Virus record (IMG/VR): IMGVR_UViG_3300027499_000007
From: a virus
Length of the DNA: 64,000 nucleotides
Direction: 5' to 3' (one strand)
This document shows positions 982 to 11,768 of this stretch, piece by piece (within the stretch, counting starts at the first letter, position 1; every line of letters starts with the position of its first letter). The notes below the pieces were generated by a model, which worked only from the letters and a program-made list of their open reading frames with translations, was not told where the DNA came from and did not search any database. The position numbers were made by a program, and so were the translations under genes.

Positions 982-1057
982 GGACTGTTAACTCAGTTGG
1001 TAGAGTAGCTGACTCTTAATCAGTAAGTCGTAGGTTCGATCCCTACACAGTCCACCA
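982..1057 (+). tRNA. tRNA-Lys(CUU)
   Basis: Cloverleaf, loop CT-CTT-AA, CCA. Confidence 0.97.
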
Positions 1058-2432: not shown

Positions 2433-2524
2433 GGAAGAGTGGCAGAGCCCGGTTTATTGCACCTGACTTGAAATCAGACGTACCTGTGAGGGTACCGTGA
2501 GTTCGAATCTCACCTCTTCCGCCA
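2433..2524 (+). tRNA. tRNA-Ser(UGA)
   Basis: Loop CT-TGA-AA, long variable arm, GCCA. Confidence 0.96.
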
Positions 2525-2529
2525 GATAG

Positions 2530-2558
2530 TTGACAAATAGATAAGTTGATTGTATAAT
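2530..2558 (+). promoter_or_regulatory. sigma70-type promoter
   Basis: TTGACA-17-TATAAT upstream of tRNA-Ser(GCU). Confidence 0.85.
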
Positions 2559-2568
2559 TAACTTATAC

Positions 2569-2660
<92 letters not shown>

Positions 2661-6950: not shown

Positions 6951-7018
6951 TTGACAAACATTTTAATTCGTGTATAATGATAACATAAGCTAAGAAATTA
7001 GCAACGTTCTTTGAAAAG
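6951..7018 (+). promoter_or_regulatory. sigma70 promoter plus boxA-like element
   Basis: TTGACA-16-TATAAT; CGTTCTTTGAAAAG at 7005-7018. Confidence 0.8.
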
Positions 7019-7024
7019 TAAAAA

Positions 7025-7872
7025 TTGGGCGGCATAACGTCCTTAGGGTAACTACAGCAATGTAGCCAAAGCAGGAAAGCCTACGCACCTGCGCTCGCAA
7101 GAGTCCATTTATGCAAGCCTGGGTCAGGGTTGACTCGCCGTAAGGCGAAAGCAACCCTCGTCACTGTAATGGTTGGCGATAGGCAGTAAGTGAGTGATAT
7201 AAGTCCGAAAGGATACGAACAGAGCCAGTCGGTGAGTTCTAATAGGCTGTGGTGGTCTAGCTGTATCGAACCAAACTCGCGAATGCTGATGATCAACAGG
7301 TAGGTATAGGGTTCGACTGTTCGCGCAGAAGGGCTGAGTACTAGTTTGATAGTTGAACCGATGAGGGGAGACTTGAAAAACCGTTGAGTAGCCCGCAAGG
7401 CAAAAGGCATGAGGTGTGTTGTATTCTGTATCTAACAAGGTATGGAGCAACTGGATCAGCACATCTTGGTAGGTTCGCAAATTGCCTAATGGTAAGGCAA
7501 CAGTCTCTTAAACTGTCGAATCTGGGTTCAATTCCCAGTTTGTATAACAAAAGCGAAAGACTGATCCGGTATGTTGTGAAAGGTGCTTAATACCTGACAC
7601 GCAAGTGAATTGGGTTCACAGAAGCTCGCAAGGCAGAAGTGATTGTTCGGATAGAAGACGTAGACTGTTAGCGCAGTCGAATAGCTCGCAAGGCTAGCGG
7701 AAGATAGATGGACGAATAGCAACATACGACGAGAGAAACGCCACTCTCCAAAAAAGGCAGCACTGAGTGTTACTAGGATAGTCGCAAGGCACCTAGTGGA
7801 TAACGGCTCAACCTTCCTCGCAAGGGACAGGGTACAAGTCAAAGACACTCGTTCAAAGCTGTAATCTCAGGC
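7025..7872 (+). ncRNA. GOLLD-like giant structured RNA
   Basis: About 850 nt, no credible ORF, many GCAA/GAAA-capped hairpins, long-range pair 7117-7123/7866-7872; size, tRNA-island context and embedded tRNA match GOLLD (family call not verified by search). Confidence 0.75.
7475..7546 (+). tRNA. degenerate tRNA-Lys(CUU) embedded in the giant RNA, no CCA
   Basis: D-arm GCCT/AGGC, anticodon arm ACAGT-CTCTTAA-ACTGT, T-arm CTGGG-TTCAATT-CCCAG; only 5-bp acceptor. Confidence 0.8.
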
Positions 7873-7882
7873 TTGGTTAGAT

Positions 7883-8140
7883 GACTTATTAGATGAACAC
7901 ACTGCCCGTCACTAAGCGGGAGGTTCATGAACCCAGTGTGTTCTTCTAATAAGTTTTGGCAGTATGCTAGCAATAGTAAACTGCCCGGAGTTGGGGAAGA
8001 GACGAGAACCAACACACCTGTATGTTTTATACATACTCCGTACAGCAAAAGAGCTTGAAACTCTTGTTGCTTGTGTGCTCTAGTCCTTTCGATTAAGAAC
8101 AACTTTGTGTTTTGTTGACTAGACATAAACGAGCCTTTGT
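7883..8140 (+). ncRNA. candidate structured RNA downstream of the GOLLD-like RNA
   Basis: Two perfect 10-bp helices (7884-7893/7945-7954; 7895-7904/7934-7943) capped by two hairpins, then further stems. Confidence 0.5.
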
Positions 8141-8260
8141 GCATTGTTCTTATGCGGCTTGTTTGTAGGGTTTCCGAAATGGATCCCGGTGTTTATTGTT
8201 AAGTTGGCAACTCACTTTCCCTCTCCGTTTCTATTATGGCAAAACAAAAGGAATAGGCAA

Positions 8261-8827
8261 ATGAACATTACACTACGCAAGGCATCAGCCCTACAAAACT
8301 CAATCAACGAAACACTCAAAGGTCTCGAAGTAACCTCTACTGTTACAGTAGATGAGTTCCAGAACGCAGGTTCTGTAATCGCAGCCAAACGCGACGAAGT
8401 CACTAAGACTATTGTACGCAAGACATCACTGCTAGACGTGCTGTACGCTGTTCGTAAGGGTGTAGCGATTGCTAACGCGGCTGCTGGCATCACAGAGTTA
8501 CTAGCAGACGTAGCACAGCTGGAAAAGCGTATTCAGCTACAAAGTCAGCTAGCCGGCGCAACAGTTCAGCTAGAACCTGCTGTGCTAGATGGGCGTCTAA
8601 ATCGTCTACGTGAGCAGACTGGCGAGACACGTCTGTACCGTTCCACCAGCGGTGTTGAAACTGGTGTGTTCACTGAAGAAGAGGTTAGCAGAGCTAAGGC
8701 AAACCTAGCCGATCTTAAGAAGCTCAAGCAGACTCTACAGGATCGCTTGCTAGAACTTAATGTAAGCACAACAATTAATCTTAGCGAAAAGTCAGTAATC
8801 GTGCTACAGCAAGAAGGTCTTGTATAA
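8261..8827 (+). CDS. coiled-coil hypothetical protein
   Basis: Start MNITLRKA behind RBS; helical heptad character. Confidence 0.8.
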   Translation: MNITLRKASALQNSINETLKGLEVTSTVTVDEFQNAGSVIAAKRDEVTKTIVRKTSLLDVLYAVRKGVAIANAAAGITELLADVAQLEKRIQLQSQLAGATVQLEPAVLDGRLNRLREQTGETRLYRSTSGVETGVFTEEEVSRAKANLADLKKLKQTLQDRLLELNVSTTINLSEKSVIVLQQEGLV

Positions 8828-8912: not shown

Positions 8913-9110
8913 AATGCGAAAGCCCTCTACACCCATAGACCGAGTGATCACGGTAGGTAACATATGGTGATAGTGCATCAACTGCGAGGGACTAGGGGTG
9001 GAGATATAACCCTGGATTAGGTGGGAGCCCTAAAACTTTTTATGTGCCCGGTTATTGCAAAGATAGCTAATTTTGGTAGACCAATACTAAATACTAGTGG
9101 AGGCCTACCT

Positions 9111-9530
9111 ATGAAAGTATATAATTGTTTAGAATGTGGTGCTGAGTGCAAGTGGGGTCATAGCAAGACTAATAAGTTTTGCAACAATACATGTCAAGCA
9201 GCATATAAATGGAAAAATGAAACAGTGCCGCGCATTGAGAGCGGAACAAGATCTGACCCTTCCACGCTTAAGAAGTATTTTGTTGAAAAGAGGGGCAATG
9301 ATTGCGAAGAGTGCGGCCAAGGTCCAATTTGGAATGGTAAGCCACTGATTTTACAACTAGATCACATAGATGGAAACAGTGACGACAATAGACCTTCTAA
9401 CATTAGATTATTGTGTCCATCTTGTCATTCGCAAACCGATACCTTCGCTGCTAAGGGTCAAGGTTCAAGATATTTGAAAAAAAATACAAAACGTAATAAG
9501 TATCTACAGCAATATAAAACGGGAGATTAG
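9111..9530 (+). CDS. HNH endonuclease
   Basis: RBS GGAGG; CEECG, LDHIDGNSDDN, LLCPSCHSQT. Confidence 0.9.
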   Translation: MKVYNCLECGAECKWGHSKTNKFCNNTCQAAYKWKNETVPRIESGTRSDPSTLKKYFVEKRGNDCEECGQGPIWNGKPLILQLDHIDGNSDDNRPSNIRLLCPSCHSQTDTFAAKGQGSRYLKKNTKRNKYLQQYKTGD

Positions 9531-9607: not shown

Positions 9608-9781
9608 ATGAAGAAAACTTATCTAGTAGAAGACTTGTTTAGTGATATACAAGACGATCCTGATCACGTGCTATTAACTTTTCCACCTGAAGTTATCGAA
9701 AGCACAGGATGGAAACCAGGCGACACACTTAATATTGAAGTTAAAGACGGTTGCATATATATTAACAGGGTAGATGAATAA
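9608..9781 (+). CDS. AbrB/MazE/SpoVT-like small protein
   Basis: LTFPPEVIESTGWKPGDTLNIEV pattern. Confidence 0.6.
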   Translation: MKKTYLVEDLFSDIQDDPDHVLLTFPPEVIESTGWKPGDTLNIEVKDGCIYINRVDE

Positions 9782-9789
9782 ATAGTTTT

Positions 9790-9854
9790 ATCAGTTGTTG
9801 ACAGCTGACAATAAAAGCGGCAAGACCCCGGGGCAGTACCGGGCAGGTCCACCA
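9790..9854 (+). ncRNA. ssrA: tmRNA acceptor piece (permuted two-piece gene)
   Basis: T-arm CCCGG-GGCAGTA-CCGGG then CAGGTCC-ACCA; late promoter ATAAATA 9778-9784; 5' end approximate. Confidence 0.9.
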
Positions 9855-9867
9855 TAAGGAAATTGCT

Positions 9868-10068
9868 ATGACCCAAGACGAAGAGCGTTTGTATTGGAGA
9901 GGCTATCATTTTCCAGGTACGCTCTCCGACGAGGAGTTAGCGGAATGGCATAAGATAGTTGACAAGCACCACGGAAGAGATATTCCTAGCGAAAGCGAAC
10001 AGGAATATTGGGGTCGTGCGCTACTTGCATTTGCTATCGTGCTTGTGCTAGTAGCAGTTTTTTTATGA
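9868..10068 (+). CDS. 66-aa tail-anchored membrane protein inside the tmRNA intervening segment
   Basis: RBS AAGGA; C-terminal hydrophobic helix; fills the gap between the tmRNA pieces. Confidence 0.7.
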   Translation: MTQDEERLYWRGYHFPGTLSDEELAEWHKIVDKHHGRDIPSESEQEYWGRALLAFAIVLVLVAVFL

Positions 10069-10069
10069 T

Positions 10070-10230
10070 GGGCCTGACATAGGATCGATTGACGTGGAAT
10101 AGGAATGCCGAGACTGATTGACTGGCAAAGTGCCAAACAAAGTAACTGCAAACGATAACTTTGCATATGAGGAACTTGCCCTAGCGGCATGATTCTTCGG
10201 GGTAGGAAATACCTAGCAACAGAAAACACC
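10070..10230 (+). ncRNA. ssrA: tmRNA coding piece, tag ANDNFAYEELALAA
   Basis: 5' GGGCCTG pairs with CAGGTCC (G3.U70); tag frame 10148-10192 ends in TGA. Confidence 0.92.
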
Positions 10231-10259
10231 AATAGGAGCCTTCGGGCTCCTATTTTTTT
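10231..10259 (+). terminator. rho-independent terminator
   Basis: AATAGGAGCC-TTCG-GGCTCCTATT plus T run. Confidence 0.92.
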
Positions 10260-10357
10260 GACTAAAATTTGCCACTTTATTTGCTGATAATGTTGTAGAG
10301 CAATAAATACATATAGAGTGTTTTACGATATGCTCTACTGCACACAAAGAGGACACT

Positions 10358-10705
10358 ATGAACGCTTGCTTTACCTGTCTAAACTGTGGTAAGAATAACC
10401 CAGTTAAAGGACACAGTTATACTAACAAATACTGTAACAACAGTTGCCAACAGCAACATCGCAGTAGGTCGTTAGTTAACGAATGGAAACAGCATCCTGA
10501 AACTACAGCGTGGAGACAGGTACCTGAATGGGTTAAGAAATATCTCATTGAGGCCAGAGGTCATAGTTGTCAAGTCTGTGGCAGTAGAACGCATAACGGA
10601 AAGGAAATACCATTAGCGATTGATTATGCTGATGGCAATACTCACAACAGTGCCGAGGAAAACCTGGTACTGATCTGTCCAAATTGTAAGGCACAGAAAC
10701 ATTAA
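10358..10705 (+). CDS. degenerate HNH-family, Cys-rich protein
   Basis: CLNC, CQVCG and ICPNC kept; DHIDG motif altered to DYADG; late promoter at 10303. Confidence 0.75.
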   Translation: MNACFTCLNCGKNNPVKGHSYTNKYCNNSCQQQHRSRSLVNEWKQHPETTAWRQVPEWVKKYLIEARGHSCQVCGSRTHNGKEIPLAIDYADGNTHNSAEENLVLICPNCKAQKH

Positions 10706-10716
10706 GGAGAAACTAA

Positions 10717-11262
10717 ATGAAAACAGTTGGTGATAAAATTGAAACTTTTGCAGTAACAGGTGTTAAGCCAGGCGCACTAACACCAGATGGTGCTTTTGAG
10801 ACCATCACAGAAAAGAGCTTTGAAGGTAAATGGAAGGTAATTGTGTTCTATCCAAAGGACTTTACTTTTGTTTGCCCAACAGAAATCGTAGCCTACGACA
10901 AGCTCAACAACGACTTTGCTGATCGCGATGCGGTACTATTAGTTGGCAGCACAGACAATGAGTTCTGTAAGCTAGCTTGGCGTGCAGCTCATGAGGATCT
11001 AAAGAAAACAAACAGTTGGATGTTTGCTGACGTTGCTCGTGACGAACTAAGTCTTGCTGATCAGCTAGGCATCTTCTATGCACCAGCTGGCGCCGCACTT
11101 CGTGCTACATTCGTTGTTGACCCAGACAACGTTATCCAGCACGTTACTGTTAACAACCTAGACGTTGGTCGTAGCCCAGAAGAAACACTTCGTATACTAG
11201 ATGCATTACAGACTGGCGAACTATGCCCATGCAGTCGTCCTATTGGTGGTGACACATTATGA
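10717..11262 (+). CDS. ahpC: alkyl hydroperoxide reductase C (peroxiredoxin)
   Basis: FYPKDFTFVCPTE and GELCPC. Confidence 0.95.
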   Translation: MKTVGDKIETFAVTGVKPGALTPDGAFETITEKSFEGKWKVIVFYPKDFTFVCPTEIVAYDKLNNDFADRDAVLLVGSTDNEFCKLAWRAAHEDLKKTNSWMFADVARDELSLADQLGIFYAPAGAALRATFVVDPDNVIQHVTVNNLDVGRSPEETLRILDALQTGELCPCSRPIGGDTL

Positions 11263-11768
11263 ATTGGCTAGAAGGGTTCAAGGCAGCATTGCCTGACTAT
11301 GCCAAGGACACTAGACTAAACTTGGATGGAGTTCTACTACGTTCAAGTTTAGATCCAGTTGTTGCAGAAGGATGTGCATTAGCTGCCGCAGTTGCCACAG
11401 GCAATGGAAAGATTGTTGGCATTATTTTAGGTGGCATGGCCAACGAGCAAGAGCGTAATGCAGCAATGACAGCCGCTAGCATCATGGCTCAAAACAACAT
11501 TTGGTACCCATACAACGAAATGGTAGATGACGCATTCAAAGGCATGAGCCCTGGACTACGTATGAATGCTATTGCTACACATGGCGGCACGTCAAAGGAA
11601 AACTTTGAAGCATACAGTCTAGCAGCCAGCATTGTGGGCAAGTGTCACTTCTGTGTAAAGAGTCATTTCAATACACTAAAGGAAGCTGGTTACAGCTTAG
11701 ATCAGCTTAAAGACATTGGCCGTATCGCTAGCGTTATGAACAGTGTTTGTAAGGTTCTAGTAGGTTAA
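11259..11768 (+). CDS. ahpD: alkyl hydroperoxide reductase D
   Basis: SIVGKCHFCVKSH CxxC motif; coupled to ahpC. Confidence 0.9.
   Translation: MNWLEGFKAALPDYAKDTRLNLDGVLLRSSLDPVVAEGCALAAAVATGNGKIVGIILGGMANEQERNAAMTAASIMAQNNIWYPYNEMVDDAFKGMSPGLRMNAIATHGGTSKENFEAYSLAASIVGKCHFCVKSHFNTLKEAGYSLDQLKDIGRIASVMNSVCKVLVG

Follow-up and report, generated by a model that had tools for sequence, protein, structure and literature searches.

Genomic location of the GOLLD RNA

The first ~10 kb of the window (the whole 64,000-nucleotide stretch of viral DNA studied here, part of an 80.6-kb IMG/VR virus record) contain 17 free tRNA genes, a permuted tmRNA gene and two HNH endonuclease ORFs, and inside this tRNA island lies the gene of a giant RNA of the GOLLD family (Table 1). 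The location on an IMG/VR virus contig, beside tRNA genes, is the one expected of a phage GOLLD. GOLLD RNAs are among the largest bacterial and phage non-coding RNAs and their cage structure has been solved; we know of no function for them.

Four of the tRNA genes have a CAT anticodon and probably include initiator, elongator Met and Ile2 types. The tmRNA gene is of the permuted two-piece alphaproteobacterial type, with the tag peptide ANDNFAYEELALAA. In phages MD18, DSS3_MAL1 and DSS3P8 and in the IMG/VR contig L136 a tmRNA gene likewise follows downstream of GOLLD, at a distance between a few hundred bases and ~3 kb; in the phiCbK group it is found upstream of GOLLD on the other strand. The small HNH ORFs stand among the tRNA, GOLLD and tmRNA genes, and an HNH gene has been reported beside GOLLD in mycobacterial tRNA clusters (PMC6582537). 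The adjacent AhpC/TSA peroxiredoxin and CMD-family (AhpD-like) genes look like an auxiliary oxidative-stress pair. By Pfam no tRNA-related enzyme was found among the neighbouring ORFs, the matches being to HNH endonucleases and to the AhpC and CMD families, with several ORFs unmatched; the PHROGs comparison placed ten large ORFs mostly in families of unknown function. 'Plastid-psbl-rps4' candidates at 2470-2657 (-) were sub-threshold and antisense to the two tRNA-Ser genes, and were discarded as Rfam artefacts.

Table 1 Features of the GOLLD locus and its surroundings (positions in the window)
Feature	Position	Strand	Details
Free complete tRNA-Lys(CUU)	982-1057	+	7-bp acceptor, discriminator A, encoded CCA
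CAT-anticodon tRNA genes	1280, 1791, 4218, 8837	+	four genes
Sigma-70-type promoter	6951-6978	+	TTGACA-16 nt-TATAAT, 12/12 matches; transcript start would be near 6985
GOLLD 5' domain	7025-7410	+	variable half outside the Rfam model; aligns with 7 alphaproteobacterial-phage GOLLDs and 78 IMG/VR relatives; GNRA hairpins abundant
GOLLD conserved 3' domain, including linker	7411-7873	+	RF02032, 187.5 bits
Pseudoknot helix, 5' strand	7451-7459	+	9 bp; pairs with 7561-7569; GGATCAG/CTGATCC extended
GUAGGUU linker motif	7469-7475	+	directly 5' of the acceptor stub; each position kept in 85-93 of 94 relatives
tRNA-shaped domain, anticodon CUU, no CCA	7475-7546	+	Rfam tRNA 56.2 bits; ARAGORN tRNA-Lys(ctt)
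Acceptor stub	7477-7481 with 7539-7543	+	5 pairs, one G-U
D arm	7484-7498	+	
Anticodon arm	7500-7516	+	loop CUCUUAA; anticodon CUU at 7507-7509
T arm	7522-7538	+	
A-rich linker 3' tail	7549-7560	+	AAAAGCGAAAGA; nearly invariant in the subfamily; also in the Rfam GOLLD consensus
Pseudoknot helix, 3' strand	7561-7569	+	9 bp; pairing counted in 94 relatives
Long branched hairpin, then UUUU	7883-7957 (hairpin to 7954)	+	-39 kcal/mol, z = -6.1; 0/200 shuffles as stable
Stretch without convincing ORF	7960-8143	+	~180 nt, between the GOLLD 3' hairpin and the next ORF
ORF	8144-8827		227 aa; sub-threshold Pfam match only
Small HNH endonuclease ORFs	9021-9530, 10358-10705	+	
tmRNA gene, permuted two-piece	9754-10283	+	alphaproteobacterial type
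AhpC/TSA and CMD-family genes	10717-11768	+	adjacent genes

Identity, extent and transcription of the RNA

A covariance-model search with GOLLD had been proposed in the preliminary description, which recognized a GOLLD-type RNA from the sequence, and this search gave an end-to-end match to RF02032 (model positions 1-416 of 416; E = 3e-51) with a score above the curated gathering score of 150. The same search of the own genome, the whole IMG/VR record, returned the identical match. The Rfam model spans the conserved 3' half only. The extent was determined from an alignment with 7 phage GOLLDs and 78 IMG/VR relatives, in which homology runs from ~7027 to 7873 (849 nt, a giant size), so that the span of about 850 nt described earlier was right. 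The dense GNRA-capped hairpins were likewise confirmed: the GOLLD span has nine of them, and other 849-nt windows have 1.7 on average and 5 at most. Folded as a single sequence, the RNA in its full length was not more stable than shuffles (z = -1.1). We conclude that 7025-7873 encodes a true GOLLD RNA of a large phage with an alphaproteobacterial-type tmRNA.

The promoter that had been noticed is a perfect one, and in relative L117 the promoter and leader are identical to those of the window, while the L114 promoter is similar. The hairpin and U-run behind the RNA, an arrangement common to relatives L033 and L114, is likely an intrinsic terminator or a 3' protective stem, as predicted from its fold. 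Transcription of GOLLD seems to start at a promoter of its own and to stop at the hairpin and U-run. The 3' arm of this hairpin is formed by the element TTCTTCTAAT(G/A)AGT, which recurs just 5' of the GOLLD start, directly after a tRNA, in L017, L074, L071, L031 and L108; this looks like a hairpin or terminator module that is repeated and punctuates the RNA gene array.

A tRNA-shaped domain in the linker

The linker of this GOLLD has 93 nt, and its helix and A-rich tail are the conserved flanks at the junction of the two domains. Within it, the complete D, anticodon and T cloverleaf reported in the preliminary description was recovered by both Rfam and ARAGORN. These arms keep what gives a tRNA its L-shape, and they show U33, a purine at position 37 and the elbow nucleotides of a functional tRNA (G18 and G19 of the D loop, T54-T55-C56 of the T loop); an A stands at the discriminator position. 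The acceptor end is different: direct reading of the sequence confirmed the 5-bp acceptor without CCA, with mismatches at 1:72 (T/T) and 2:71 (C/A) in place of a 7-bp stem, and the 3' side is AACAAAAGCG and not NCCA, with AACA at 7546-7549 continuing into the conserved tail. The stub passes directly into conserved single strands, which are GUAGGUU on its 5' side and the A-rich tail on its 3' side. All 17 free tRNAs of the window encode CCA and the embedded element is the sole exception. The separate intact tRNA-Lys(CUU), also noted before, proved complete, so that decoding does not need the embedded copy.

The helix GGATCAG/CTGATCC that had been seen to enclose the cloverleaf was verified and extends to 9 bp. 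Its 5' strand sits in the bulge of the Rfam outer stem (7411-7418 with 7460-7467), which makes this linker-closing helix a pseudoknot outside the nested structure of Rfam.

Conservation and covariation among relatives

The nearest GOLLDs of GenBank phages are all from phages of Alphaproteobacteria (Phaeobacter MD18, DSS3_MAL1, Mesorhizobium Cp1R7A-A1, the Caulobacter phiCbK group, Sinorhizobium Phosso and Roseobacter DSS3P8). The seven relatives examined from alphaproteobacterial phages all reach the GOLLD cut-off, and six have a tRNA-like element at the same place. IMG/VR relatives were gathered by a sequence pattern derived from the invariant flanks. This pattern scan found linkers of 66-96 nt in at least 119 IMG/VR stretches, a shorter linker in 4 and a longer one in 13; as they were gathered by pattern, and at least 119 matches were listed, these relatives are not an unbiased census of GOLLD. 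Many of them are on contigs of 240-364 kb. Among the stretches listed there were 97 distinct linkers, in 80 of which ARAGORN called a tRNA.

We built a covariance model of the helix-enclosed module and aligned with it 94 distinct modules from IMG/VR and phages. Pairing was found in 98.3% of the cells of the pseudoknot helix, 98.4% of the inner acceptor stub (4 bp), 99.2% of the D stem, 99.4% of the anticodon stem and 99.1% of the T stem. For the outer three acceptor pairs the value was only 42.7%, with slid controls at 29-41%, so that across the 94 relatives these pairs are at chance level; acceptor positions 2 and 3 have no nucleotide in more than half of the modules. Changes on both sides of a pair were found in 642 cells against 183 in shuffles, and the covariation score of 0.618 (0.176 in shuffles) was reached by none of 500 shuffles. 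Three pairs of the pseudoknot helix change on both sides. The slid controls speak against the possibility that this covariation stems from the alignment having been fitted to the model. The elbow nucleotides G18, G19, T54, T55, C56 and A58 are kept in 93-100% of the embedded set. Free tRNAs of these contigs, 56 in number, served as an internal control: the three outer acceptor pairs are all formed in 52 of them and in a single one of the 94 embedded elements, and CCA is present in 43 of the 56 and in none of the 94.

The domain is absent from DSS3P8 and from four IMG/VR contigs, and is consequently dispensable for GOLLD itself. Two relatives, L129 and L130, have 63-nt linkers without a tRNA-like fold and keep GUAGGUU. 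GUAGG occurs once more at 7300-7304, and CCUAC is conserved at 7080-7084. A search for a pairing partner of GUAGGUU that included both of them established none; covariation is unable to reveal such a partner because the motif is invariant.

A different arrangement was found in three GOLLDs of the same subtype, L136:4702-4874 (+), L142:5356-5528 (-) and L139:7550-7724 (+), two of which were scanned with Rfam and gave 198.8 and 188.5 bits. Their linkers contain a circularly permuted tRNA-like element with the order T arm, acceptor 3' strand, ACCA, 8-11-nt loop, acceptor 5' strand, D arm and anticodon arm, and with a full 7-bp acceptor. The elements represent two distinct sequences with compensatory changes in every stem, and their order is the gene order of permuted two-piece tmRNA genes. 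Cutting of the loop, if it occurs, would divide GOLLD into two pieces and expose a free CCA end.

A single lineage with changing anticodon loops

When tRNA bodies were compared without the anticodon loop, the nearest neighbour was another embedded body for 93 of the 94 embedded elements. For all 76 embedded bodies that could be tested, an embedded element with a different anticodon was a closer match than any free tRNA sharing their anticodon. Judged by this similarity, embedded bodies with all kinds of anticodons belong to one lineage. The nine closest relatives of the element in the window have 83-90% body identity, with differences that are mostly compensatory stem changes, and their loops are CTCTTAA (five), TTTAGAT (two), TTTATGT (one) and TTATGGA (one). 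Bodies 86-90% identical to that of the window thus bear CUU, UAU, UAG or AUG, and the anticodon is not conserved among orthologues. A decoder whose anticodon was swapped on an unchanged body would be mischarged. One lineage with loops that switch among nearest relatives points to a non-decoding structural domain and not to a lysine-specific device.

Among the 80 ARAGORN calls the most frequent anticodons were Asn GTT (22), Lys TTT (13), Lys CTT (12) and Arg TCT (9), and there were also 'Leu' and 'Ser' forms without a long variable arm, CTA and TCA, and anticodons of 2 or 4 nt. In the 94 modules, C32 is found in 69, U33 in 87, U35 in 63, U36 in 79, A37 in 83 and A38 in 84, and position 34 varies almost freely (T 43, G 33, C 16). 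NUU anticodons (Asn or Lys) make up 58 of the 94, U33 is absent in seven and the loop has 8 nt in four. These counts indicate that the anticodon loop is still constrained across the subfamily and mostly of the canonical 7 nt, with a loop-specific function or a slow decay from a Lys/Asn ancestor as possible reasons. A free tRNA with the same anticodon was found in 35 of 72 partly sampled loci, against 25.0 +/- 3.1 in permutations (P about 0.002, with kinship ignored). A kissing-loop interaction was considered and abandoned: in a comparison of the anticodon loop with every column of a full-length MAFFT alignment of 78 sequences, whose quality is limiting, no covarying column stood out for position 34, and position 35 gave only weak scattered background matches (MI about 0.5).

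A probable retained structural domain without a decoding role

The best explanation of these data, and a likely one, is a GOLLD with a retained, non-decoding tRNA-shaped linker domain that is under selection for its structure. The pairing kept through compensatory changes, together with the nearly invariant elbow and flanks, shows purifying selection on the fold, and the linker domain is a selected tRNA fold. The suggestion in the preliminary description that the tRNA is a structural domain and is not used for decoding agrees with the degenerate acceptor, the missing CCA and the lack of anticodon conservation among orthologues. Its more specific proposal, a bait for lysine-specific anticodon nucleases, is not supported, given the nearly identical bodies with UAU, UAG and AUG and the free position 34. 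With an anticodon that orthologues do not conserve, the domain should not be specific for lysine.

Homology with the solved structures makes it probable that 12-14 copies of the RNA assemble by themselves into a closed RNA-only cage, with the linker toward the lumen. The domain can probably be neither matured nor aminoacylated, in which case it would stay covalently part of GOLLD, and in a closed cage with lumen-facing linkers each particle would bear a ring of tethered tRNA mimics inside. The function that we favour is a docking or decoy site for a factor that recognizes the tRNA shape, which might be a tRNA-binding enzyme, a nuclease or the ribosome. For any particular ligand our confidence is much lower than for the structural domain as such, and a role of the domain in folding or architecture is the main alternative. 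A more elaborate picture can be drawn, in which the L-shape of the mimics displayed by GOLLD cages captures a tRNA-binding host factor (the ribosome, a modification enzyme or a defence nuclease), loop switching between near-identical bodies tracks the specificity of this factor across hosts and the permuted ACCA form is a processed, possibly chargeable version; we would give this picture as a whole little chance of being correct.

Other readings of the embedded element have to be weighed against this one. It might be a true tRNA-Lys(CUU) that is kept inactive in the cage as a stored precursor and later processed by RNase P and at its 3' side, provided with CCA and charged, as proposed in a review for the tRNA-Phe of mycobacterial GOLLD (PMC12990946). 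The cloverleaf with U33, A37 and the A at the discriminator position would fit such a precursor, and both ARAGORN and Rfam do call a tRNA, but the window has mismatches at 1:72 and 2:71, outer acceptor pairing among the relatives does not exceed chance, more than half of the relatives have nothing at positions 2 and 3, and CCA is found in none of them while every free tRNA of the window encodes it. Furthermore, the virus already has a complete tRNA-Lys(CUU), and orthologues with nearly the same body show other anticodons, short 'Leu' and 'Ser' forms, G33 and 8-nt loops. No CCA-adding enzyme (PF01743) turned up in the 80.6 kb of the record, but this counts as weak evidence, the estimated completeness of the record being about 21%. 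Storage of a precursor is thus very improbable. That the element is a decaying relic, a tRNA gene once captured by a variable linker and now a functionless pseudogene, would account for the same-subtype GOLLDs without the domain and for the degeneration of the acceptor end and, partly, of the anticodon loop. Decay is scarcely credible, however, for four helices that are 98-99% paired through hundreds of compensatory changes, far beyond the both-side changes of the shuffles, and for elbow nucleotides and flanking motifs that are nearly invariant.

Two further possibilities give the tRNA shape an active partner. Known anticodon nucleases such as PrrC act on tRNA-Lys, and tethered tRNA mimics could soak up a host defence enzyme that cleaves tRNAs. 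The bias of the loops to CU-N-UU-AA, of Lys/Asn type, the position within a phage tRNA island and the excess of loci with a free tRNA of the same anticodon (again with kinship ignored) are in favour of such a decoy. We consider it unlikely, since the loop identity changes on near-identical bodies, which disfavours the lysine-specific version, position 34 is nearly free, some elements have no U33 or have 8-nt loops, and the linker faces a closed lumen according to the cryo-EM work, which would restrict the access of proteins. The domain might instead act as a processing signal recruiting RNase P or RNase Z to cut between the 5' and 3' domains and produce a two-piece RNA, in the way that the mascRNA element of MALAT1 works as a tRNA-shaped processing signal. 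RNase P recognizes the elbow, the T arm and the acceptor region, and the best-conserved parts here are the elbow, the T arm and the inner acceptor stub; the two halves of GOLLD are separate 3D domains in the cryo-EM work, and the rare permuted form of L136, L139 and L142, with its 7-bp acceptor and an ACCA closed by a loop, resembles the permuted tmRNA genes that are processed. Nevertheless, the helix adjoining the expected cleavage site is absent in the standard form, the 9-bp pseudoknot would keep the halves together anyway and the only published northern on a GOLLD pseudo-tRNA gave no separate product (PMC6582537), which together make processing distinctly unlikely.

The presence of tRNAs or pseudo-tRNAs in the GOLLD linker is already published (PMC12286853, PMC12990946, PMC6582537). 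In the literature covered by our search we found no systematic analysis of the embedded element, and the quantitative picture given here (the 4-bp stub, the GUAGGUU motif and the single lineage with loop switching) may be new detail, not a new class. The window alone would be the annotation of one more GOLLD gene. The interest lies in the linker being the only lumen-facing part of GOLLD, and one that is invisible in cryo-EM maps: in a large subtype (at least 119 viral contigs, many of them from phages of 240-360 kb) it is a strongly selected tRNA-shaped domain and not disordered filler. As this domain has lost the parts needed for charging, the hypotheses narrow to recognition of the tRNA shape and away from tRNA supply. 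The linker segment 7468-7555 provides a defined piece for constructs with and without the domain.

Comparison with known GOLLDs and tRNA-like RNAs

The reuse of the tRNA shape as a recognition module in non-decoding RNAs is known from the tRNA-like domain of tmRNA, the 3' tRNA-like structures of plant viruses and the mascRNA of MALAT1, and these modules have a functional acceptor end that is charged or processed. The embedded element differs from all of them in being internal and without a complete acceptor helix or CCA.

The RNA of the window is like the GOLLD family described by RF02032 in matching the full model above the cut-off, in its size of ~850 nt with a variable 5' and a conserved 3' half, in its location in a phage tRNA island and in the place that its linker, with the conserved A-rich 3' tail, takes in the model. 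The GOLLDs with solved structures are the env-38 14-mer (PDB 9MEE) and the Streptococcus agalactiae 12-mer (9L0R) (PMC12286853, PMC12990946). The linker of GOLLD is inside the cage, and tRNAs are present in it in some cases (PMC12286853). The env-38 linker is a disordered stretch of 42 nt without a tRNA, whereas that of the window is more than twice as long and has a tRNA-shaped fold. The RNA of the window, for which cage assembly is predicted, belongs to a subtype of phages with alphaproteobacterial-type tmRNA and of many large environmental phage contigs.

In Mycobacterium, Behra et al. (2019) described a 'pseudo tRNA gene' within GOLLD without a separate transcript on the northern (PMC6582537), and a passage of the 2026 review, citing Morgado 2020, has the tRNA-Phe in J13/15 pointing inward and proposes 'inhibited storage' (PMC12990946). 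The element studied here resembles the mycobacterial pseudo-tRNA in being a tRNA-like gene nested in the linker and judged non-functional, and differs from it and from the tRNA-Phe in the host clade and in the tRNA body. With the free tRNA-Lys(CUU) of the same virus it shares the cloverleaf, the loop CUCUUAA and the A at the discriminator position, but it has 4-5 acceptor pairs and not 7, has no CCA and passes without a break into the RNA that flanks it at either end. The bodies of the embedded and the free copy are unrelated, and that of the embedded copy clusters with the other embedded elements.
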